DNA of 64,000 nt from Bacteroidia bacterium (GTDB taxonomy: Bacteria > Bacteroidota > Bacteroidia > UKL13-3). The notes below the pieces were generated by a model that did no database searches, was not told the DNA's origin, and saw only the letters and a program-made list of their open reading frames with translations. The stretch covers positions 53,871-117,870 of the forward strand of contig JBAYTR010000005.1 in NCBI GenBank assembly GCA_041675505.1, written 5' to 3'. Of the stretch, positions 20,557-60,154 are shown piece by piece. Each line of letters starts with the position of its first letter. Within the stretch, counting starts at the first letter, position 1. The position numbers and the translations under genes were made by a program.

Positions 20557-21294
20557 TTACAGGTTAAAATGGTGGGATTCTTTGAAGAGTAAAATGAGTC
20601 CTATGCCTAAAATCAGGAATAGCACCAGCTTTTTGAATTTTTCTTGTGGTATGCGGTAGAGTAATTTTTTGCCAACCAGCGAACCGAAAAATGAAATAAC
20701 CAATAGTAGCGGAATAAGGTACCAATATTGTTTATCGAAGTAACCATAGCCCAAATACACCATGCTGCGGCTTAAATCCACACCTAAATCTACTGCTGCA
20801 GAAGTAGCAACAAATGTATTTTTCTCCAGATTAAATGCAGCCATGCTTATACCACGTATTGCTCCTCCGGTACCATTAAATCCGGCCAATAGTCCGGCTA
20901 AAGCTCCACTAAACAGGGCATTGTTTCGCGTTGCAGGTAATTGCAGTTTAGGTAACAAGAGTAAGGTGGCACTAAATATAACCAGAAAAAAGGCGAGTGT
21001 TAATTCGGCCAGTTCGAACGAAGTATGGGTACTCAGATAAGACCCTGCCAGCACCAGCAACACACTGGGAATGCCATAGTAAAGCAGAAGTTTTTTGTCT
21101 ATGCTGTTTCTGAACAGCAGCAGTTTGTTCACGTTACTGAACACGTGTAAAATGCCGGTAATGGCCAGCACCATGTTAAAACTGAAGAAAAACCTGGCTA
21201 TAGGAACAAAAAATACCGATGATCCGAAACCACCTACAGTTCCCAGTATTTCACATATAAAAGCGGCCAGTAAAAAAAGTATATCTAAACGCAA
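20557..21294 (-). CDS. Sulfite exporter TauE/SafE family membrane protein
   Basis: The 245-aa polytopic protein has two internally repeated halves with GxxxG-rich helices ('GTVGGFGSSVFFVP', 'GFNGTGGAIRGISMAAF'), typical of TauE/SafE. Confidence 0.65.
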   Translation of the reverse strand: MRLDILFLLAAFICEILGTVGGFGSSVFFVPIARFFFSFNMVLAITGILHVFSNVNKLLLFRNSIDKKLLLYYGIPSVLLVLAGSYLSTHTSFELAELTLAFFLVIFSATLLLLPKLQLPATRNNALFSGALAGLLAGFNGTGGAIRGISMAAFNLEKNTFVATSAAVDLGVDLSRSMVYLGYGYFDKQYWYLIPLLLVISFFGSLVGKKLLYRIPQEKFKKLVLFLILGIGLILLFKESHHFNL

Positions 21295-21327: not shown

Positions 21328-24015
21328 TTAGTTATCGTAGCCCAGATTAGGTGACAGCCACTTTTCAATGAAAGCCACATCTTTCCCTTTTCTTTGAGCG
21401 TACTCTTCTATTTGGTCTTTGTTTATTTTTCCAACACCAAAATATTTACTTTCAGGATGACCGAAATAAAAACCACTCACGCTGGCTGCGGGGTACATGG
21501 CAAAACTTTCTGTTAACGTAATACCTGCATTTTTTTCTGCCTGCAACAAGTCAAATAACAAACGTTTTTCTGTATGATCAGGACAGGCCGGATAACCCGG
21601 TGCAGGTCTGATGCCACGATAGCTTTCTTTAATTAACTCTTCAGTAGATAAGTGTTCTTCCTTGGCGTATCCCCAATATTCCCTGCGAACCAGTTCATGC
21701 ATTTTTTCTGCAAATGCTTCAGCAAGTCTGTCGGCAATTGCTTTAATCATGATGCTGTGGTAGTCGTCATGGTCTTTCTCGTATTGCTCCACTAACTTCT
21801 CTATGCCTATGCCTGTGGTTACAGCAAATCCGCCCATGTAATCCGTAACCCCTGTTTCTTTGGGAGCTACAAAATCGGCTAAGCAATTGTAGGTTTGTCC
21901 TTCTGCTTTCTCGCTTTGTTGACGTAAGAAATGGAAAGTATGTTTTTCATTGGCTGAAGTGTGGAGTTCAACATCATCTCCTACGGCATTAGAGGGCCAA
22001 AAGGCAATAACGGCTTTAGCCTGAAGAAGATTTTTTGCTATCACCTCATCCAGCATTTTGTTGGCATCGTTAAACAATTTTTGCGCTTCCACACCAACTA
22101 CTTCATCTGTTAGGATTTTCGGGTAACGGCCGGCCAATTCCCAAGTCATGAAGAACGGGGTCCAATCAATATAATCGCGCAATTCACTTAGAGGGAAATT
22201 ATCAAACACCTTCACTCCGGTAAAGCCGGGAGCAACTATATTTTTAACATCAACGTTAATTTTATTTGCACGGGCTTTTTCCAGCGATACAAAGTTTTTT
22301 TCGCGTTTGCGGTTTTTGTAATCTTCTCTGAACTGAGCATACTCTGCTTTTAAGTTGGCCTGAAAAGCAGGTCGGTTTTCTTTGCTGATGAGGCTTTGTG
22401 CTGCGGGTACACTCTTACTTGCATCCAGTACATGCACTACCGGACCACTGTAATTCTGATCAATTTTAACCGCTGTATGAACTCGAGAAGTGGTAGCTCC
22501 GCCAATCAGCAACGGAATATCCATTCCCAGCCGTTCCATTTCTTTAGCTACGTGAACCATCTCATCTAAACTGGGAGTAATTAAACCACTCAGGCCAATT
22601 ACGTCTGCTTTTTCAGCTTTGGCACGTTCCAGTATTTTATCAGCAGGTACCATTACGCCCATATCAACAATTTCAAAGTTGTTACAAGCCAGCACAACGC
22701 CAACAATGTTCTTTCCTATATCGTGCACATCACCTTTTACGGTAGCCAGTAAAATTTTTCCTTGTCCGCCACCTGCTGCTGCTCCGGCTAAACGTTTTTC
22801 TTCTTCCAGGTAAGGTGTTAAATAGGCTACAGATTTTTTCATAACCCGCGCACTTTTTACTACCTGAGGAAGAAACATTTTTCCTTGCCCGAATAAGTCG
22901 CCCACTATGTTCATACCAGCCATCAGCGGACCTTCAATCACATTAAGTGGCTTACCGTATTTTTTTCTGGCTTCTTCAGTATCTTCATCAATGTACTCTA
23001 CAATACCTTTTACCAAGGCATGGCTTAGTCGTTCCTCAATGGTGCCTTTGCGCCATTCCTCATCAATTACTTTTTCTTTGCCTTTACCTTTTACTTTCTC
23101 TGCATACTCCAGTAGTTTTTCTGTGGCATCATCCTTTCTGTCCAGCAAAACATCCTCTACATACTCCAGTAGTTCTTTGTCAATTTCATCGTATACTTCC
23201 AGCTGGCTGGGGTTAACTATGCCCATATCCATACCGTGTTTAATGGCATGGTACAAAAATGCTGAGTGCATGGCTTCACGCACTTTATCGTTACCACGGA
23301 AAGAGAAAGAAACATTCGACACACCTCCGCTTATTTTTGCTCCGGGCAGGTTTTCCTTAATCCATTTGGTTGCTTTGAAAAAGTCAATAGCATTTTGACG
23401 GTGCTCTTCCATTCCGGTGGCTACCGGGAAGATGTTGGGGTCAAAGATGATATCACCTGCGGGGAAGTGAACTTTTTCAGTTAATATTTTGTAAGCACGT
23501 TCAGCAATTTCAATTCTGCGCTGGTAGTTATCGGCCTGGCCAACTTCATCAAACAACATTACAATTACAGCTGCCCCAAAACGTTTTACAATTTTGGCCT
23601 GGCGGACAAATTCTTCTTCTCCGCCTTTCATGGAAATAGAATTCACCACGCATTTACCTTGCACACATTTTAATCCGGCCTCAATAATCTCCCATTTACT
23701 GGAGTCAATCATAACGGGAACACGTGCAATATCGGGCTCAGCCATAACAAGGTGAAGGAAACGGGTCATGGCTTCTGCGCCATCAATCATTCCCTCATCC
23801 ATATTGATGTCTATGATTTGTGCACCGCCCTGCACTTGTTCTCTGGCAACATCAAGCGCTTCATCAAAATTCCCCTCTTTAATCAATCGAAGAAATTTCT
23901 TTGAACCGGTAACGTTGGTGCGTTCTCCCACATTAATGAAATTGGAGCCTTCAAAAATGACTAGAGGTTCGAGTCCTGATAGTTTGAGGGTATAGTTTTG
24001 AGCAGTATTGGTCAT
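21328..24015 (-). CDS. metH: Methionine synthase, C-terminal polypeptide (pterin-binding, B12-cap, B12-binding and AdoMet-activation domains) of a split MetH
   Basis: 'GERTNVTGS' and '[13 protein letters not shown]' mark the pterin domain. '[15 protein letters not shown]' is the DxHxxG B12-binding motif, and an activation domain follows. The start is taken at internal 'MTNTAQNY' to avoid overlap with the upstream receiver gene. Confidence 0.9.
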
Positions 24016-24031
24016 AGAAAAATTGGTGTAA

Positions 24032-24418
24032 TTAAACGTGGTAAACAGCAGAGAGTTTTTCAAAAAGTTCTTCGGGTTTAAACGGCTTGGTGATAACATC
24101 ATTTATGCCGGCCGTCTTAGCATTTTCCTGTGTGTCGGAAGAAGCATCTGCCGTAAGTGCAAAAATGGGAGTGGTGGTATTGAATTTTCGTATTTCAACA
24201 GAGGCTTCAATTCCATTCATTACGGGCATATACATATCCATCAAAATAACATCATAAGTTCCTTCCGTACATTTATCAACGGCTTCTCTGCCGTTTTTTG
24301 CCACATCCGTTATCACCCCCCAGCGCTGCACAAATTTGGTAAGCACCAGTATGTTCATGTTATCATCTTCAGCAATAAGCATACGTAAACCGGTCAGGTC
24401 GTTTTTTACTTCACTCAT
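24032..24418 (-). CDS. Stand-alone response-regulator receiver (CheY-like) domain protein
   Basis: The 128-aa protein has 'LIAEDDNMN', '[14 protein letters not shown]', 'ALTA' and 'KPF', which are all the canonical REC residues. There is no output domain. Confidence 0.85.
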
Positions 24419-24442
24419 ATTATCTTCTCGTCAGTAAATGCA

Positions 24443-25462
24443 TTAAGAATTTGAAACTACAGCAGATTCAATTTTGCGCGGTTGATATTTTGCAGCCATC
24501 TCAGCTATTGCTTTAATGTGATCGGGTGTGGTTCCGCAGCAGCCCCCCAAAACGTTCACTAATCCTTCTTTGCAAAATTCTTCCACTTGCTTGGCCATAG
24601 CAGCGGGACTCTCGTCATATTGCCCCATTTCATTTGGTAAACCGGCATTGGGATATGCACTTACATAATACGGGGAGTTGTTGGCCATTACCTGCAAATA
24701 TGGTCTTAAAGCACTTGCACCTAAAGCACAATTTAATCCTATACTTAGTAAAGGCATATGTTGCATGCTGATAAGAAAGGCTTCTGTAGTTTGTCCGGAT
24801 AGTGTTCTTCCCGATGCATCGGTTATGGTTCCACTCACCATAATAGGAATACGTTTACCTGTTTCTTCAAATAATTCGTCAATAGCATACAATGCTGCTT
24901 TGGCATTTAGAGTGTCAGTGATTGTTTCAATCAGCAGCAGTTCAACTCCACCATCAAGCAAGCCCTTTGCCTGTTCTTTGAAAGCTACTACTAATTGGTC
25001 GAAAGTAACGGCTCTATATCCGGGGTTGTTTACATCTGGTGACATTGATGTAAGTTTTGTTGTTGGACCCATTGATCCCGCAACATATTTGGGCTTGTGG
25101 GGTTCCTTAGCTGTAAATGCATCTGCCACTTCGCGAGCAATTTTTGCTGATTGGTAGTTAATCTCATATACCAAAAAACCAAGTTCGTAATCTGCCTGCG
25201 CAATACTTGTGCTACCAAAAGTATTGGTTTCAATAATGTCTGCTCCGGCTTCCAGGTATTGTTGGTGAATGGCTTTTATAACATCAGGTCGCGTGATAGA
25301 TAATAAGTCGTTGTTCCCTTTGAGGGATAGTGGGTGATTCTTTAACTGTTCGTTTCTGAAATCATCTTCTTCCAAATGATACCGCTGAATCATGGTTCCC
25401 ATAGCGCCATCCAGTATAAGGATACGTTTTTGAATAATGTCTTTTATATTGGGTTTTGTCAT
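24443..25462 (-). CDS. metH: Homocysteine S-methyltransferase domain protein (N-terminal polypeptide of the split MetH)
   Basis: The 339-aa protein has '[10 protein letters not shown]', 'DIIETNTFG' and a C-terminal '[11 protein letters not shown]' zinc/Hcy-binding motif. Confidence 0.85.
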
Positions 25463-25520
25463 TGCCTGTTTATTTTCTTATCGCGATTGACTTCGTGACA
25501 GCAGGCAGTTAAAAAATAAC

Positions 25521-25632
25521 TGCTCATCTGTATACGAAACAGTAATTTCGTATTAGGAGTTGGCACCCGTCACTTGCCGGGTTGCCAAGACTTCACAGGG
25601 CCTATTCCCTCTGTCTTTCTTGATAAGCGTGG
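25521..25632 (-). promoter_or_regulatory. SAM-I riboswitch in the 5' leader of the split metH operon
   Basis: The reverse complement reads 'CGCUUAUCAAGAAAGACAGAGGGAAUAGGCCCUGUGAAGUCUUGGCAACCCGGCAAGUGACGGGUGCCAACUCC...ACAGAUGAGCAG'. This matches the SAM-I consensus (P1 'CUUAUC'/'GAUGAG', 'AGAGGGA', 'GGCCC', 'GGCAACC', 'GGUGCCAA..CC'). Confidence 0.85.
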
Positions 25633-25917
25633 CAAATATAAGTTAATGCCATATACTTTGTTACCACATTCTCAATTTGGGCCATTTTTTTCCACCTTTT
25701 TATTCGGCCATCGGATTTTATCCCAAAATAGTTCATTTATGCTTTTGTGTATCCCGTAATGGGTCTGTTATTTTTGGTCCCGAAATAAAAAAATCTGATT
25801 TTCAGTAAATTGGTGTTTGGCACAACTATTTCTATACACTACTCAGCAGACAGATAGGTTTTTCATAGTTTAGTTAGCCCCGGGATTCGCAAGAGTTCCG
25901 GGGTTTCTTTTTTTATG

Positions 25918-26916
25918 TTATGCAAAAAGAAGATTACACCCTCTGATATCGCTGTTGTCAAGTCTGCCACTCACTTCAAAACCGTTTGTATGTAAACGTC
26001 CTATATCATCTGTAGCAATAAAGGCGCAAGAATCTATATTGGCCAAATCAATGATATTGATGGCGCCCGATGCACCACTTGCACCACTGATATCAAAAGG
26101 GTCGTTGGTATTTCTAATCAGTACTTTCATCCAGTGCGGAGTATGGAAAAGAGCATCGCTTTCTGAGTAGGCCTGGCTTAATAGCTCAGTCATTCCGTAT
26201 TCAGATATAATTGCTGCAGGTTGAAGTCTTGTTTGAAGAGTATGATGCAGTTCGTTGCGTGTTATTTCTTTTCTGCGCCCTTTCATACCCCCGGTTTCTA
26301 CAATAATGGTATTGTCGAGGTGAAGTGTGGTTTGGTCAGTGATGTTAAGCAAGGCATACGTCACACCCCATAGAAGCAATTTTTTGTGTTCGCTGCGGGC
26401 TTTTTCCTGCAAGTAAGTGAGCTGATTAATGAGTTGTTCGTCTAACTTATAGAACCTGCTGTCGCTGTGTTTACTTTGATTAATCAGGTGGTCTACCATA
26501 TAAATAAGCGATGAACCCTCACGTTCTATGTAGGAGGGAAGCACTGCACAGAAAATAAAATCTTCGGGCTTACCAATAAAACGGATGAAACTATTGATAA
26601 AGGATTTGATGTACAGGTCGGTTGATTTTAGGCGATGATAACTTTGTCCTGTCCCGGTTGTGGAACTGCTGCTGAAAATAATTTCCGGTTCAAAAATTCC
26701 CGTTTGTATATGTTGTGTCTTAAAGAACTGAACAGGCAGAAAAGGTATATCTTGAATTTGTTTTACAGAAGTTGCATCTTTTCCTAATAAAGAAATGTAC
26801 TGGCGGTAAACAGGGTTATGAATAGCCTGATGCTGAAATAAAAGCAGGGCAGATTCGTTAAAATCGAAGCCGGAGGATGAAAATAGCTCATCAATGAATC
26901 TGTCACGGTTAAACAT
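25918..26916 (-). CDS. Acyl-protein synthetase, LuxE-like
   Basis: The 332-aa protein's length, the 'GGMKGRRKEI' motif and the overall profile are consistent with the LuxE family. No luxC/luxD homolog is adjacent. Confidence 0.5.
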   Translation of the reverse strand: MFNRDRFIDELFSSSGFDFNESALLLFQHQAIHNPVYRQYISLLGKDATSVKQIQDIPFLPVQFFKTQHIQTGIFEPEIIFSSSSTTGTGQSYHRLKSTDLYIKSFINSFIRFIGKPEDFIFCAVLPSYIEREGSSLIYMVDHLINQSKHSDSRFYKLDEQLINQLTYLQEKARSEHKKLLLWGVTYALLNITDQTTLHLDNTIIVETGGMKGRRKEITRNELHHTLQTRLQPAAIISEYGMTELLSQAYSESDALFHTPHWMKVLIRNTNDPFDISGASGASGAINIIDLANIDSCAFIATDDIGRLHTNGFEVSGRLDNSDIRGCNLLFA

Positions 26917-27724: not shown

Positions 27725-27866
27725 CTTAAGTTGTAACGAGAGAAGCTTTAAACAAATTTAAAAGTTTTATTAATTAAAAAATCAAATCAGAAATATTTTT
27801 TTAAAATTTTTCTGTGGCGAAATTTATGTCGGCAATTTGTAATTCCAAACGATGAGTGAAAATACT

Positions 27867-28769
27867 TTACTGAAATAATTCACAAGCTGTCCTGAAAGTG
27901 TTACAGTGTGCATTTACAATATCTCCGATTCGGGGAGAATAACCACCACCCATGGAGGCTACAATTGGAACTGAATGTTGCAGAGCATGATGAAAAATAA
28001 GTCGGTCACGTTCCATGCATTCTTCAACGGTAAGAAGGAGTTTGCCGTATCTATCGGTAGCCAGCACGTCTACACCTGAGTTATAAAAGATAAAGTCAGG
28101 AGAGAAGAGTTTCATTATTTTGCTGAGTTGTTCAGCTAATATGAGCAGGTAGTTTTCTCCGGTGGTATCTGTGGGCAGCTCGATATCCAGATCGGAATTT
28201 TCTTTTCGCAACGGGTAATTTTCTTTGCCGTGCATGCTAAAAGTGAATACGCGTGGTTCGTTTGAAAATATTTGAGCAGTACCGTTTCCCTGATGCACAT
28301 CTAAGTCTGCAATTAAAATGCGTTTTGCCTGTTGCCGGTGCAGCAGATATTTAGCGGCAACAGCATTGTCATTCAATAAACAAAAACCTTCTCCTTTGTT
28401 GGTAAATGCGTGATGTGTGCCTCCTGCTATATTAAGTGCAGCACCGTTTTTTATGGCATATTCAGCACACTCTACTGTTCCCTGCACCAGAACTAATTCC
28501 CTTTTTACAAGTTCATCAGTTAGCGGAAAACCTACTGCTCTTACTTCTTTTTCACTCAGCGCTAAATGCAACAGTTTATCTACGTACTCTGCGGTATGGG
28601 TAAGTAAAACAGTTTTCAGATCTGCTGTTTCAGGCTCAAAAAACTGCTCCGGTGTTACTACGTTTTCCCTAAGTAGTTGTTCATGGAGCAATGCGTACTT
28701 TTCCATAGGAAACCGATGGCCTTCGGGCAATGGTAAAGAATACAGGTTACTCCAGGCTATGCGAATCAT
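27867..28769 (-). CDS. Histone deacetylase-family protein (AcuC/AphA-like)
   Basis: The 300-aa protein has 'LIADLDVHQGNGT', 'FSMHG' and 'GGGY', which are arginase/deacetylase-fold motifs. Confidence 0.8.
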   Translation of the reverse strand: MIRIAWSNLYSLPLPEGHRFPMEKYALLHEQLLRENVVTPEQFFEPETADLKTVLLTHTAEYVDKLLHLALSEKEVRAVGFPLTDELVKRELVLVQGTVECAEYAIKNGAALNIAGGTHHAFTNKGEGFCLLNDNAVAAKYLLHRQQAKRILIADLDVHQGNGTAQIFSNEPRVFTFSMHGKENYPLRKENSDLDIELPTDTTGENYLLILAEQLSKIMKLFSPDFIFYNSGVDVLATDRYGKLLLTVEECMERDRLIFHHALQHSVPIVASMGGGYSPRIGDIVNAHCNTFRTACELFQ

Positions 28770-28883
28770 AGGTATCAGTGTCCGAATTACCTCAATTGTT
28801 TGTTTAGAATTATTCTAATTATTGGCTATTTTGCACTGCAACATTTACAGAATGTTATATATTTACCCCAAAAACAATACTAC

Positions 28884-30032: not shown

Positions 30033-30338
30033 ATGGAAACAATACTTAATTTTATTACAGATAACCTGCAATTAATCTACCTCATTATACTCATGATTTT
30101 TGTAGGTGTAGAAATTATATCTCACGTACCTTCTGTTTTACATACGCCTTTAATGAGCGGTGCTAATGCTATTCACGGTGTGGTAATTATCGGTTCCATT
30201 ATTGTTATGGGGCAGGCACATCAAACTGTTTCCCTTGTACTGGGCTTTCTGGCTGTTGTACTCGGAACACTTAACGTTGTGGGTGGTTTTGTGGTAACCG
30301 ACCGCATGCTCGAAATGTTCAAGAAAAAGAAAAAGTAA
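30033..30338 (+). CDS. NAD(P) transhydrogenase subunit alpha, part 2 (PntAB, membrane)
   Basis: The 101-aa protein has three TM helices and 'GANAIHGVVIIGSII', typical of PntAB. Confidence 0.8.
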   Translation: METILNFITDNLQLIYLIILMIFVGVEIISHVPSVLHTPLMSGANAIHGVVIIGSIIVMGQAHQTVSLVLGFLAVVLGTLNVVGGFVVTDRMLEMFKKKKK

Positions 30339-30358: not shown

Positions 30359-30786
30359 AATTTCTAATGGTTAATAGTGTAAATATTTTGAATGTAATGT
30401 CTGAAGGTAAGATATACGATTTGGAGGAACGCACTTTCATATTTGCTAAAAGAGTTAGAGACTTTGTTCGATTATTGCCATTAACGATTTCCAACAAAGA
30501 AGATATTCGTCAGTTAATTAGATCATCAGGCTCAATCGGTGCAAATTATATAGAGGCTAATGAGAACCTAGGAGAAAAAGATAAAAAGATGCGCATACGT
30601 ATTTCAAGAAAGGAAGCTAAGGAGACTAGATACTGGCTTAATTTAATTGAAACGAAAGATGTTAAGGAACTTGAGGAAGAAAGAAGAAGATTGGCCACTG
30701 AGGCTGAAGAATTGATGCTAATATTTGGGACTATAATTAAACGTTTAAATTAACAATTCGAGATTCGGAATTAACAATTAGAAATT
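30359..30786 (+). mobile_element. Mini-insertion carrying a 'four-helix-bundle protein' gene, bounded by 17-bp imperfect inverted repeats. Left repeat 'aatttctaatggttaat' at 30359-30375; right repeat 'attaacaattagaaatt' at 30770-30786
   Basis: The two repeat arms agree at 16 of 17 positions when one is reverse-complemented. The element expands the pntAB-pntB junction, which is normally a few bp, to about 450 bp. Confidence 0.5.
30397..30753 (+). CDS. Four-helix-bundle protein (TIGR02436-like, '23S rRNA intervening-sequence protein' family)
   Basis: The 118-aa protein has 'YDLEERTFIFAKRVRDF', 'IRQLIRSSGSIGANYIEANE' and 'KDKKMRIRISRKEAKETRYWLNL', which are family hallmarks. Confidence 0.8.
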   Translation: MSEGKIYDLEERTFIFAKRVRDFVRLLPLTISNKEDIRQLIRSSGSIGANYIEANENLGEKDKKMRIRISRKEAKETRYWLNLIETKDVKELEEERRRLATEAEELMLIFGTIIKRLN

Positions 30787-30794
30787 AAAACAAC

Positions 30795-32210
30795 ATGCAA
30801 CAACACATACTACAACTCATATATCTGATAGGCTCAGTAACTTTCATTCTCGGATTAAAGTATCTGGGTAATGCTGCTACAGCCCGAAAAGGTAACCTTA
30901 TTGCAGCATTTGGTATGGCCATCTCCATTTTCGGAACTATCTTTTTGTATACAGATAAAGATGGCAATCACCTGGGTAATCTGGGTTTAATTTTTGGCGG
31001 TCTGATTGTAGGAACCATAATAGGTTGGATGGCCGCTAAAAAAGTACAGATGACAGCTATGCCGGAGATGGTGAGTTTGTTTAACGGAATGGGTGGTGCC
31101 TGCGCTATGCTTATTTCGGTTATTGAATTTCAACACCTCACCTCACCTGAGCACACAGGACCTCTTGCCAGTGGTATGTTACTTACCATCATTACCGGAT
31201 TGATTATCGGCTCGGTTTCTTTCTCCGGAAGTATAATTGCCTGGGGCAAACTCAGCGGTAAGGTGAAAGACAAATCATTCCCTTTTCAGCAATACATCAG
31301 CATAGGTTTAATGCTGGTGATTTTGTTTTTCGCCTATCAGGTGATTGCATTAAAATCAGACAATTTTCAAACTGAACTTTACATTGTACTGGCACTTTCT
31401 CTGGTGTACGGTATCTTATTCGTACTGCCAATTGGTGGTGCTGATATGCCTGTGGTTATCTCGTTGCTCAATTCTTTTACTGGTGTGGCCGCAGCTTGCG
31501 GAGGTTTCCTTTACGATAACAAGGTGATGCTGGTAGGAGGTATACTGGTTGGTTCAGCAGGAACACTGCTCACCATTGTGATGTGTAAAGCCATGAATCG
31601 CTCCCTGTTGAATGTGTTAATAGGTAATTTTGGTGGTGGTGCTTCAGGCGCTGTTGCCACTTCATCAACAATAGTGGGTTCCATTAAAGAAGTGAAGGCC
31701 TCTGATGCAGCTATACTAATGAAATATGCCAAGAAAGTAATTATTGTTCCGGGTTACGGATTGGCTGTAGCACAAGCACAGCACGTGGTGCATGAACTGG
31801 AAGAACTTTTGGAAAGAGAGGGTGTAGAAGTTAAATATGCTATTCATCCCGTTGCCGGTCGTATGCCTGGGCACATGAACGTATTGCTGGCTGAGAGTAA
31901 TGTGAGCTACGATAAATTGGTGGAAATGGAAGAAATCAATCCGGAGTTCAATACCACAGATGTGGTACTGGTAGTAGGAGCGAATGACGTAGTGAACCCA
32001 GCAGCTAAAACAGATCCCGCTTCACCTATTTACGGTATGCCCATACTGGAAGTGGAGAATGCCCAAAATGTGATTGTAAACAAACGTAGCATGAAAGCCG
32101 GTTATGCAGGCATCGAAAACGAGTTGTTCTACCGTCCTAAAACCAGCATGTTATTTGGTGATGCGAAAAAAGCACTAACTGAGTTGGTGAACGAAATAAA
32201 ATCCCTTTAA
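30795..32210 (+). CDS. pntB: NAD(P) transhydrogenase subunit beta
   Basis: The 471-aa protein has an N-terminal polytopic membrane domain and a C-terminal dIII domain with 'VPGYGLAVAQAQH' and 'GANDVVNPAA'. Confidence 0.9.
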   Translation: MQQHILQLIYLIGSVTFILGLKYLGNAATARKGNLIAAFGMAISIFGTIFLYTDKDGNHLGNLGLIFGGLIVGTIIGWMAAKKVQMTAMPEMVSLFNGMGGACAMLISVIEFQHLTSPEHTGPLASGMLLTIITGLIIGSVSFSGSIIAWGKLSGKVKDKSFPFQQYISIGLMLVILFFAYQVIALKSDNFQTELYIVLALSLVYGILFVLPIGGADMPVVISLLNSFTGVAAACGGFLYDNKVMLVGGILVGSAGTLLTIVMCKAMNRSLLNVLIGNFGGGASGAVATSSTIVGSIKEVKASDAAILMKYAKKVIIVPGYGLAVAQAQHVVHELEELLEREGVEVKYAIHPVAGRMPGHMNVLLAESNVSYDKLVEMEEINPEFNTTDVVLVVGANDVVNPAAKTDPASPIYGMPILEVENAQNVIVNKRSMKAGYAGIENELFYRPKTSMLFGDAKKALTELVNEIKSL

Positions 32211-57704: not shown

Positions 57705-57869
57705 GTGTGCTTACAGTGGGATAAAATTACTTCTACGGGCTTACAATTGCATCATCAGTTGGCAGGTAAATTTCAACGCGTTAAACAGCAACTGTTTGTA
57801 TTTTTTGTTTGGAGAAAAATAAAACTCTCCCTTTCTTCGCATCCGTTACTCGGTTCTTAGTTCATATAA

Positions 57870-58060
57870 TTTGAACAAAAGATTAATAGGGAATCAGGTG
57901 TAAATCCTGAACAGTTCCCGCTGCTGTAAGTTTCTGCAACGCAAGTTGCAACCTGTTGCCAGCCTTTACGTCACTGTTCACCTTTGGTGGATGGGAAGAC
58001 CGGACAACTGGGGAAATGAGTCAGAAGACCTGCCGCAATAACACAAGTGCATGTAGCTTT
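57870..58060 (+). promoter_or_regulatory. Cobalamin (AdoCbl) riboswitch
   Basis: 'AATAGGGAATCAGGTGTAAATCCTGAACAGTTCCCGCTGCTGTAAG', then 'CACTG..GGGAAG', then the B12 box 'AGTCAGAAGACCTGCC'. It lies about 110 nt upstream of the TonB-dependent receptor. Confidence 0.9.
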
Positions 58061-58171: not shown

Positions 58172-60154
58172 ATGCTGAACGAAAAATACACATGCGACTC
58201 ATTTCAACTCAGGTTACTATTAACCTTACTGAGTGTTGCCTGTGCTGTGTTCCATACCTCAGCACAAACTGATTCCTCCAAACACATACCTGAGGTGACC
58301 ATTACAGCCGTGCGCGGGGAACAGTTGCAAACAGGTGCCAAGGTGCAACAATTTACTCCCGCACAGTTACGTGCATTTGCCACAGCTAACCTGGGCGAAC
58401 TACTTTCAGCCAACACTCCGGTGTTTATTAAAAGTTACGGACCGGGTAGTTTAAGTAGCATTTCTTTTCGGGGTACAGGAGCCTCGCATACCGCAATTGT
58501 GTGGAACGGGTTTAACCTGCAAAGTTCCATGAACGGGCAAACTGATTTGTCCATGTTTCCCATAGGCACCTTTGATGAGGTGAGGTTGCAGTATGGCGGC
58601 AACAGTGCTTTGTACGGAAGTGGTGCAATTGGTGGCAGCATTTATTTGCGCAACACAGCTGCCTTGGTTGATTCACCACAGATGCACTTGGTCTTGCAAG
58701 CCTCTTCGGGAAGCTTTGGTACACAGCAATATTTTGGCAGCTACGGTTATTCAGGCAAAAGGTTTAGTACACAAGTGAAATATTACCGCAATAACTCAGA
58801 TAATAATTATTCTTTTACCAATACCGCAGCTTTTCAATCTCCTGACGTAAAACAAACACATGCGGCCTTTACCCAACAAGGTGTAGTGTTGAATGTCGGT
58901 GGGAGCGTGTCTAAATATACCCGCATCAATGCGTATTACTGGTGGCATAACAACCAACGCGATTTGCCGCCTACTATGTTGCAAAGCACTTCATTGGCTA
59001 CACAAGCGGATGAATCACACCGGGCAGCGATTGATTTTACTTATGGTCGTAACAAATGGCAAAGCATTTTACGCAGCGGATTTTTTCTGGAACAACTTCG
59101 CTACAGCGACCCGATTGCTGGTATTGACAGTAAAAATCGTGCAGTCAATTGGGTGAATGAGTTGGAGCTTTCTTATACCGTTTCACCGATTCTGAAAGTG
59201 ATATCGGGGGTAAACTTTACCACCATCAATGCATCTTCACCCGGCTATTCATCAACTGCTTCTCCTTCCCAAAACAGAACAGCCATTTTCGCAGCTGCCA
59301 GATGGGGGAAGCAAACAGCAGCCTCGCGTTTTAAATCAGACATCTCGGCACGTGCTGAAAATATTTCGGGAGTTTGGGTGCCCGTTACCTTCAGCTTCGG
59401 AACGCAGACAAGGGTAGCTAATAATTTGCACTTTCATACTTTGGTATCACGCAATTACCGTTACCCAACGTTCAATGATTTGTACTGGCAACCCGGTGGC
59501 AATTTACAACTGAAACCGGAGTACAGCTTTAATGCGGAAAGCGGATTGAACTATGTATACACTTTATCAAAGCATCAGTTCAAAGCTAACGTAACGGTGT
59601 TCAGTCATTGGGTTGATAACTGGATTATCTGGATGCCTGATTCCGTTAACCCCAACGTGTGGACTCCCAACAACGCAGCCGAAGTGTGGAGCAGGGGAGT
59701 AGAGTATGGTTTGGGTTATACCTGGCAGCCGAAGTTAAACACAGCTATTTCGGTAAACGCGTTGTATACGTGGCAGCAAGCCACACACGAGAAGGTGGCC
59801 TTTGCAGGAGATGCTGCTTTGCACCGTCAGTTAATTTATATGCCGAGACAAATGGGCTCGTTGCAACTGAGTGTGCAACACAAAAAGTGTCAATTCAGTT
59901 TTCAGCAAGTGTATAACGGTTTGCGTTTTACCAGCAGCGACAATTACAATTACCTGCCAGCATTCTGGTTAAGCAGTGCTCAGCTGTCCTACACCTTTCA
60001 ATTGAAAAAATATCCTGCCTCGGCCCGTGCGTTTGTTTCGGCAAAAAATATGTGGAATGAAAATTACCAGGTGATGTTGTGGCGAGCCATGCCGGGGCGC
60101 TACATAGAAGCAGGTTTACGATTGGAATTACAACATAAAATTAAACATCAATAA
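58172..60154 (+). CDS. btuB: TonB-dependent receptor, probable corrinoid transporter BtuB
   Basis: Signal peptide and plug domain ('VTITAVRGEQL', 'SISFRG'). The C-terminal barrel ends '...RLELQHKIKHQ'. The preceding cobalamin riboswitch supports the BtuB assignment. Confidence 0.75.
   Translation: MLNEKYTCDSFQLRLLLTLLSVACAVFHTSAQTDSSKHIPEVTITAVRGEQLQTGAKVQQFTPAQLRAFATANLGELLSANTPVFIKSYGPGSLSSISFRGTGASHTAIVWNGFNLQSSMNGQTDLSMFPIGTFDEVRLQYGGNSALYGSGAIGGSIYLRNTAALVDSPQMHLVLQASSGSFGTQQYFGSYGYSGKRFSTQVKYYRNNSDNNYSFTNTAAFQSPDVKQTHAAFTQQGVVLNVGGSVSKYTRINAYYWWHNNQRDLPPTMLQSTSLATQADESHRAAIDFTYGRNKWQSILRSGFFLEQLRYSDPIAGIDSKNRAVNWVNELELSYTVSPILKVISGVNFTTINASSPGYSSTASPSQNRTAIFAAARWGKQTAASRFKSDISARAENISGVWVPVTFSFGTQTRVANNLHFHTLVSRNYRYPTFNDLYWQPGGNLQLKPEYSFNAESGLNYVYTLSKHQFKANVTVFSHWVDNWIIWMPDSVNPNVWTPNNAAEVWSRGVEYGLGYTWQPKLNTAISVNALYTWQQATHEKVAFAGDAALHRQLIYMPRQMGSLQLSVQHKKCQFSFQQVYNGLRFTSSDNYNYLPAFWLSSAQLSYTFQLKKYPASARAFVSAKNMWNENYQVMLWRAMPGRYIEAGLRLELQHKIKHQ

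Follow-up and report, generated by a model that had tools for sequence, protein, structure and literature searches.

Organization of the Split Methionine Synthase Operon

The 64 kb of Bacteroidia bacterium DNA analysed here (contig JBAYTR010000005.1, the whole stretch being referred to as the window) harbors a cobalamin-dependent methionine synthase (MetH) operon in which a gene for a stand-alone receiver domain is located between the two parts of a split metH, and all features of the operon lie on the minus strand. Read from 5' to 3', they comprise a candidate Bacteroidota-type -7 promoter box found by pattern search (TATATTTG, of the form TAnnTTTG, 25640..25633), situated 4 nt 5' of the aptamer; the aptamer of a SAM-I (S-adenosylmethionine, SAM) riboswitch (Rfam RF00162, 25629..25521); metH-N, which encodes the homocysteine S-methyltransferase module (339 aa, 25462..24443; PF02574 S-methyl_trans, E 2.3e-99); an intercistronic spacer of 24 nt (24442..24419); the receiver gene, encoding a single-domain response regulator of 128 aa (24418..24032; PF00072); a second spacer of 16 nt (24031..24016); metH-C, with the pterin-binding, B12 cap, B12-binding and reactivation modules (895 aa, 24015..21328); and, after a further 33 nt, a gene for a TauE/SafE-family membrane protein (21294..20557; PF01925). 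The mechanical open reading frame (ORF) of metH-C starts at 24102 and would overlap the receiver gene; the conserved start codon is instead an ATG at 24015, and the 895-aa form was taken as the gene because relatives align only from this codon (from residues 1–6 of that form). A preliminary description of this DNA had also divided metH into a homocysteine methyltransferase gene and a remainder, and the division stands, with the remainder corrected from 890 to 895 aa; its spacers of 25 and 16 nt are right for the second and one nucleotide too long for the first.

The modules of MetH are complete across the two ORFs, with PF02574 in the 339-aa ORF and PF00809 (Pterin_bind), PF02607 (B12-binding_2), PF02310 (B12-binding) and PF02965 (Met_synt_B12) in the 895-aa ORF. 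The zinc-ligand cysteines are readable in the translation of metH-N (GLNCALG, GGCCGTTP), as is the cobalamin motif DxHxxG..SxL..GG in that of metH-C (GDVHDIG, GLSGL, LIGGA), and both halves look catalytically intact from their translated sequences. Splitting of metH is common, as the preliminary description had stated for Flavobacteria and Bacteroidota: a scan of a genome collection with metH-N yielded 77 loci, a sample skewed by the peptide patterns used in the scan, and a separate metH-C was observed shortly downstream in 58 of them, mostly in Bacteroidota and in a few Proteobacteria. From this adjacency, and by analogy with a three-part MetH, we infer that the products of metH-N and metH-C combine to form an active enzyme. 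The three-part cobalamin-dependent MetH of Phaeobacter inhibens, shown genetically (Price et al., 10.1101/192971 / PMC5764234), likewise has MetH modules on separate genes that work together, whereas the enzyme of the window is split in two at the homocysteine/pterin boundary, keeps its reactivation domain and has an unrelated signalling gene between its parts; Price et al. (10.1101/192971) describe no insert between the MetH parts. The TauE/SafE gene is the probable last cistron of the operon, and the terminator scan found no terminator-like site on the minus strand between it and metH-C. It touches or overlaps metH-C in the related loci L078 and L080 and is absent from L167 and L170, and is therefore a variable part of the operon.

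Features of the Receiver Protein

The receiver ORF has its own start (ATG at 24418) and stop (TAA at 24034..24032), lacks an output domain and matches PF00072 over profile positions 2–110 of 111 (97.1 bits against a cut-off of 30.2, E 8.8e-28), and its orthologues range from 125 to 129 aa. The AlphaFold2 model (predicted local distance difference test score 91.5) exhibits the (beta-alpha)5 doubly wound fold, with strands at residues 12–16, 36–40, 57–61, 85–89 and 107–110 and helices at 20–31, 43–52, 69–79, 94–102 and 115–126. All top Foldseek matches in the PDB are receivers, with template modelling (TM) scores of 0.81–0.88, the best being 8phn, the receiver of a fungal hybrid histidine kinase (TM 0.85), while the best solved relative by sequence is the hybrid kinase ShkA (6qrj, 76.8 bits), followed by the receivers of other hybrid kinases. 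The pocket consists of E17-D18, the phospho-acceptor aspartate D61, T89, and K111 followed by P112, which agrees with the earlier account of a 128-aa receiver between the halves with all phospho-acceptor residues present. D18, D61, T89 and K111-P112 are invariant in the family alignment of five members (A2), where E17 is invariant or nearly so, and D61, T89 and K111 are also invariant in the alignment of 12 receiver sequences (A1). Helix alpha1 is mostly invariant and forms the most conserved surface in the family alignment; in receivers, alpha1 is the docking face for kinase and histidine phosphotransfer (HPt) partners. Judged from sequence and model together, the protein would be a functional single-domain response regulator able to accept a phosphoryl group.

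The ratio of nonsynonymous to synonymous divergence (dN/dS) of the receiver is 0.025 against locus L001 and 0.05–0.07 against L078 and L082, equal to that of the metH halves; synonymous divergence in these comparisons has reached saturation or comes close to it. The GC content of the receiver gene, overall and at third codon positions (GC3), equals that of the neighbouring genes. Three other identities or histories were considered for the gene and rejected. It is not a chemotaxis CheY proper, as its nearest relatives are the receivers of hybrid kinases and the window holds no che-type genes, so that "CheY-like" applies to the fold only; nor is it a flavodoxin-like electron donor for the reactivation of MetH, being a clear member of PF00072 with the full phospho-acceptor set and only receivers among its structural neighbours; and a recent foreign insertion is at odds with GC and GC3 values like those of the neighbours and with a position kept through saturated synonymous divergence.

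Conservation of the Receiver Position among Relatives

Among the 77 loci, only L001 (JAGPCK010000023) has a receiver between the metH halves, and further cases emerged once contigs coding for receiver homologues were examined. The receiver was observed directly 3' of metH-N on 15 contigs belonging to five sub-lineages with DNA, with metH-C directly next on all but one. The sub-lineages and their receiver identities are the window and L001 (98%); L078–L082 (80–83%); L167–L170, which include NCBI GCA_020849055.1 (60%); L171 (60%); and L083 (54%); and MetH-C is 87–91% identical to that of the window in L078–L082 and 80% in L167–L170. In relatives both close and moderately distant (54–98% identity), receiver orthologues are thus found at this site, a check that the preliminary description had proposed, and the absence from close relatives that it had named as a refutation is not observed. 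The single contig that lacks a following metH-C is L083, where the tail of metH-N lies directly upstream of the receiver and the contig ends right after it; positions 775–807 of L083, directly after the receiver stop codon, are Illumina adapter sequence (AGATCGGAAGAGC), and the missing metH-C is therefore an assembly artefact. A receiver of 60% identity in P0012 is probably also linked to metH, with a next gene of at least 461 aa that overlaps it by 4 nt. The first spacer measures 25 nt in L001, 12 nt in L078, 12 nt in L082, 5 nt in L167, 3 nt in L171 and 40 nt in L083, and the second measures 15, 11, 14, 6 and 3 nt in relatives. The wider neighbourhood, comprising pntAB, a deacetylase gene and a LuxE-like gene, is also syntenic.

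Regulatory Signals of the Operon

The preliminary description had placed a SAM-I riboswitch at the head of the unit, and this is borne out by a match to RF00162 of 76.9 bits (gathering threshold 44.4, E 2.5e-16) that covers the full model from 1 to 108, with a fold z-score of -4.8 for the aptamer. SAM-I (S-box) riboswitches are established on methionine genes, Bacteroidetes included (Barrick and Breaker 2007, PMC2258182), and the window operon resembles these regulons in having a full-length aptamer in its leader and methionine biosynthesis genes behind it, but differs from them in that a two-component gene is added and that the expression platform holds no canonical terminator, none having been detected 3' of the aptamer by the terminator scan. 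In the fold of the window leader, P1 is followed at once by a weak AU hairpin with a U run, and a further helix extends to the region just before the AUG. A SAM-I match lies 5' of metH-N in 16 of the 24 related loci searched, whether the receiver is present or not, from which the riboswitch is taken to be older than the receiver. In the receiver-bearing sub-lineage C (L167–L169) no SAM-I aptamer was detected even at E values up to 10, and this sub-lineage appears to have lost it. As it keeps the receiver, SAM-dependent expression is not a constant feature, and the constant association is that of the receiver with the split metH, not with the riboswitch. The leaders of L167–L169 (for example L167:2113-2514) keep about 110 nt after the TATATTTG box, a stretch that matches no Rfam family.

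The spacers of 3–40 nt around the receiver leave no room for both a promoter and a terminator of its own, the arrangement that the preliminary description had named as evidence against a shared unit, and the terminator scan found no terminator-like hairpin in them. The receiver would thus be made from the methionine synthase mRNA, and as in the window's lineage this mRNA would begin with a SAM-I riboswitch, the receiver should there be abundant when SAM is low. A promoter in the 3' part of metH-N could instead drive the receiver, possibly together with metH-C, and so escape the riboswitch. Promoters can sit in coding sequence, and a sigma-70 scan did return a 10/12 match, yet at 24279..24251, within the receiver gene itself; the scan as a whole is at chance level (15 promoters against 14.0 expected, and 9 terminators against 6.1 expected) and uses a consensus that is wrong for Bacteroidota. 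The TAnnTTTG pattern occurs only twice on the minus strand between 21328 and 25700, at 25640..25633 and, inside metH-N, at 25223..25216, and no such box was found on that strand within the 790 nt upstream of the receiver or before metH-C. With these observations and the tight, hairpin-free spacers, independent transcription of the receiver is regarded as improbable. Across the window the pattern is not enriched (68 found against 77 expected), so that only the position of the box before the aptamer is suggestive; the TATATTTG box is also present in the leader of L167.

Origin of the Receiver

None of the metH-linked receivers falls below 195 bits in the profile search, where the first outsider reaches 154 bits, and in a neighbour-joining tree, the only kind of tree used in the analysis, the metH-linked receivers represent one clade. 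The nearest outsiders, about 41–54% identical to the window receiver, fall into two groups: the C-terminal receivers of hybrid kinases of the PAS/GAF-HisKA-HATPase_c-REC type, or ORFs located right after a HATPase_c tail (L172, L173); and stand-alone receivers elsewhere, after atpC in L174, beside a VanZ-like gene in L175, and in L084. P0014, a HATPase_c tail followed by a receiver, is 53% identical. A metH context was looked for around the outsiders P0031, P0045, P0023, P0019 and P0025 and was absent, and the matches listed from a metagenome scan with the receiver alignment were generic receivers that did not exceed 45% identity, with no metH adjoining any of them. As the outsiders include hybrid-kinase receivers and the metH-linked receivers form one clade, the protein appears to be a receiver of hybrid-kinase type that was captured once. 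It resembles the C-terminal (D1) receivers of hybrid kinases (6qrj ShkA, 8phn, 7c1j, Sln1 8phx/2r25 and GacS D1 7qz2), which are its best matches in sequence and structure, and differs from them in being free-standing, with no HisKA or HATPase_c upstream.

Some of the close outsiders are broken hybrid kinases (L172:2380-3576; P0014), in which an ORF with HisKA only is followed by an ORF with a HATPase_c tail plus receiver, and a 195-aa ORF that starts inside HATPase_c was also observed. These may be pseudogenes or assembly frameshifts, and they could be the kind of fragment able to yield a free receiver.

Loss of the Receiver and Recurrent Occupation of the Spacer

In the bootstrap tree of MetH-C (22 taxa, 860 columns, 200 replicates), the window, L078 and L080 join the receiver-less L073 at 100%, and L167 and L170 join a large receiver-less clade at 85%, while both groups together form a clade at 100% that excludes L035, L053, L045, L048 and L050, whose halves simply abut. 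Receiver-bearing lineages therefore lie on either side of the deepest split of the clade, which fits one old, ancestral capture of the receiver and at least two losses. As the sister lineages, among them L073 (JBKBLB01) and OZ257140.1, run the same split operon without it, the receiver is dispensable for the function of MetH.

The spacer between metH-N and metH-C differs in content among the receiver-less relatives, being empty (6–210 nt) in 20 loci, holding a gene of the 23S_rRNA_IVP family (PF05635, 107–134 aa) in about 22 loci, and holding a gene of the PDDEXK_3 / GxxExxY family (PF13366, 124–131 aa) in 7 loci, with all of these genes co-oriented with metH. They share with the receiver the spacer, the orientation and a similar size (107–134 aa), but belong to unrelated folds and families and were inserted repeatedly and patchily, whereas the receiver would have been captured once and inherited. 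Another type of occupant was observed in L011, where a 103-nt spacer (L011:6985-7083) contains a long perfect inverted repeat, ctacaaagaaacaaag...ctttgtttctttgtag. A 23S_rRNA_IVP gene of 128 aa also lies on the plus strand of the window at 30367..30753, between pntA-beta (30033..30338) and pntB (30795..32210); it is shared with L001 and absent in L078, L082 and L168, whose two pnt genes abut, and is a second case of small genes colonising an intercistronic spacer.

These patterns bring up the explanation that the receiver is purely a passenger, the spacer being a permissive landing site, the protein serving signalling unrelated to methionine, and co-expression being a historical accident. The varied occupancy of the same spacer, the IVP gene wedged between pntA and pntB, the repeated loss of the receiver, the loss of the riboswitch in a sub-lineage that kept the receiver, and the synteny of the neighbourhood as a whole, under which a retained position needs no special cause, all speak for it. 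It is nevertheless judged rather unlikely, given purifying selection on the receiver as strong as that on MetH over saturated synonymous divergence, junctions that are always very tight and sometimes overlap, and a single capture followed by inheritance, unlike the repeated insertion of the IVP and PDDEXK_3 genes.

A second explanation is direct post-translational control, in which the receiver, phosphorylated or not, would bind one or both halves of MetH and modulate assembly, activity or reactivation; it comes close to the idea of the preliminary description. In favour of this, translationally coupled junctions tie the gene to the two interacting halves on either side of it, its linkage to metH persists where the riboswitch is gone, and single-domain receivers generally work through protein-protein contacts. 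The receiver-less sisters weaken the idea of a direct effect on MetH, as L073, the closest receiver-less relative, and the large sister clade have the same split enzyme; no receiver–MetH fusion was observed among the best 120 of 859 relatives; and the receiver has its sequence affinity with kinase-attached receivers and is most conserved on the alpha1 face used for kinase or HPt docking. Such control is considered quite unlikely, and its more specific form, an accessory subunit that depends on phosphorylation and whose phospho-form, by docking on metH-N or metH-C, would gate the assembly or reactivation of the enzyme, more unlikely still.

Proposed Role of the Receiver and Its Limits

The reading that we favour, tentatively and with a likelihood slightly short of even, is that a receiver derived from a hybrid kinase was captured once into the metH spacer, is co-expressed with methionine synthase, acts as a phosphate sink or shuttle, and is not needed for MetH itself. 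In this sequence of events, a hybrid histidine kinase would have given rise to the receiver through its C-terminal receiver domain, and the gene would have entered the short spacer of the split metH before a clade of uncultured Bacteroidota diversified, some members of the clade keeping it under strong purifying selection and others losing it. It would be translated from the methionine synthase mRNA, which in the window lineage is led by SAM-I, so that its abundance would rise at low SAM; it would take phosphoryl groups from a hybrid kinase or an HPt relay encoded elsewhere, and as a phosphate sink or shuttle it may damp or reroute that relay while the metH operon is on. Single-domain response regulators such as Spo0F, CheY1 of Sinorhizobium, DivK of Caulobacter and MrrA act as phosphate sinks or shuttles. 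The window receiver resembles them as a free (beta-alpha)5 receiver of about 120–130 aa with an intact acidic pocket, the threonine and the lysine, and no output domain, and differs from them in its location inside a biosynthetic operon behind SAM-I and not beside kinase, HPt or che genes, and in that phosphotransfer is here a prediction.

Several observations weigh against this proposal. The sink or shuttle role, though the most likely one, is an analogy drawn from ancestry. Searches of the 64 kb by tblastn with the receiver and 13 hybrid kinases detected no other receiver, HisKA or HATPase_c, and no HPt protein was found there either, so that the search for a cognate orphan histidine kinase proposed in the preliminary description yielded none in the window. 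As the entire neighbourhood is syntenic, functional coupling does not follow from the conserved position by itself. The riboswitch is missing from sub-lineage C, and co-transcription is itself deduced, a promoter within the metH-N coding sequence being possible. Recombinational transfer could mimic or blur the pattern of losses, and the comparison of the window with L001 is mosaic inside metH-N, with 72% nucleotide identity over 25260..24861 (about 400 nt) against more than 90% in the flanks, which looks like a patch of recombination or gene conversion; the receiver and metH-C are 91–100% identical between the two, and weaker dips were observed at 28858..27859 and 26659..25660. Whether the coupling is adaptive or a frozen accident is best judged cautiously in view of the repeatedly colonised spacer, the losses and the general synteny.

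The preliminary description had further regarded a phosphorelay input into the expression or activity of methionine synthase as an arrangement not described before. No published description of a receiver inside a metH operon was found in the literature covered, outside which many subscription-journal papers lie, and to that extent the statement holds; the analysis yielded no evidence for the input itself, and the absence of an output domain, the lack of a partner in the 64 kb, the receiver-less sisters, the riboswitch-free sub-lineage and a spacer open to unrelated genes all argue against it. Information could equally flow from SAM status through receiver abundance to a phosphorelay, or there could be no functional coupling.

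Other Features of the Window and Related Loci

Upstream of the operon, a hairpin lies after the LuxE-like gene (25912..25842, minus strand) and has a counterpart at L167:2122-2190. Its stem exhibits compensatory changes between the two lineages, CCCCGG/CCGGGG versus CCCCGAAG/CTTCGGGG, and it is followed by a stretch of about 35 nt that is identical, ctaactaaactatgaaaaacctatctgtctgc, though the LuxE-like proteins are only 53% identical. The conserved element may combine a terminator with a second signal or with a mini-ORF (MKNLSVC). Elsewhere in the window, a cobalamin riboswitch (RF00174, 86.5 bits) is located on the plus strand at 57834..58052, 5' of a 660-aa ORF (58172..60154) and three more co-oriented ORFs; these probably represent a B12 uptake operon, in keeping with the reliance of this genome on a B12-dependent MetH.

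In ten of the related loci (L003, L004, L006, L010, L022, L034, L037, L049, L074 and L075), a metH-N homologue (76–81%) is followed not by metH-C but by a gene for an APC-family amino-acid permease of about 560 aa. These pairs resemble an S-methylmethionine pair of the mmuP/mmuM type, or else metH-C lies elsewhere; no SAM-I riboswitch was found at L004, the single permease-type locus that the search covered. Directly 3' of a metH-N homologue in L012 lie four paralogous genes in tandem (L012:7300-9393) that encode secreted proteins of about 135 aa, and the one of these proteins that was tested has no Pfam match.

Biological Significance

The receiver in the metH operon is a new context for known kinds of parts, and as it stands the protein is best seen as a presumably co-expressed passenger, a conserved gene-neighbourhood oddity of uncultured Bacteroidota and not a proven regulator of methionine synthesis. 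The locus offers a natural example of the break point of a split gene serving as a landing pad, used once by the receiver and many times by the IVP and PDDEXK_3 genes. A functional coupling would represent a wiring not described so far, in which a SAM-I RNA and the operon of an essential one-carbon enzyme set the dose of a two-component protein. If the bolder reading is true, a phosphorelay would act directly on methionine synthase and control the methionine/SAM cycle post-translationally, and should the receiver be an accessory subunit, the splitting of metH would have made room for such control.

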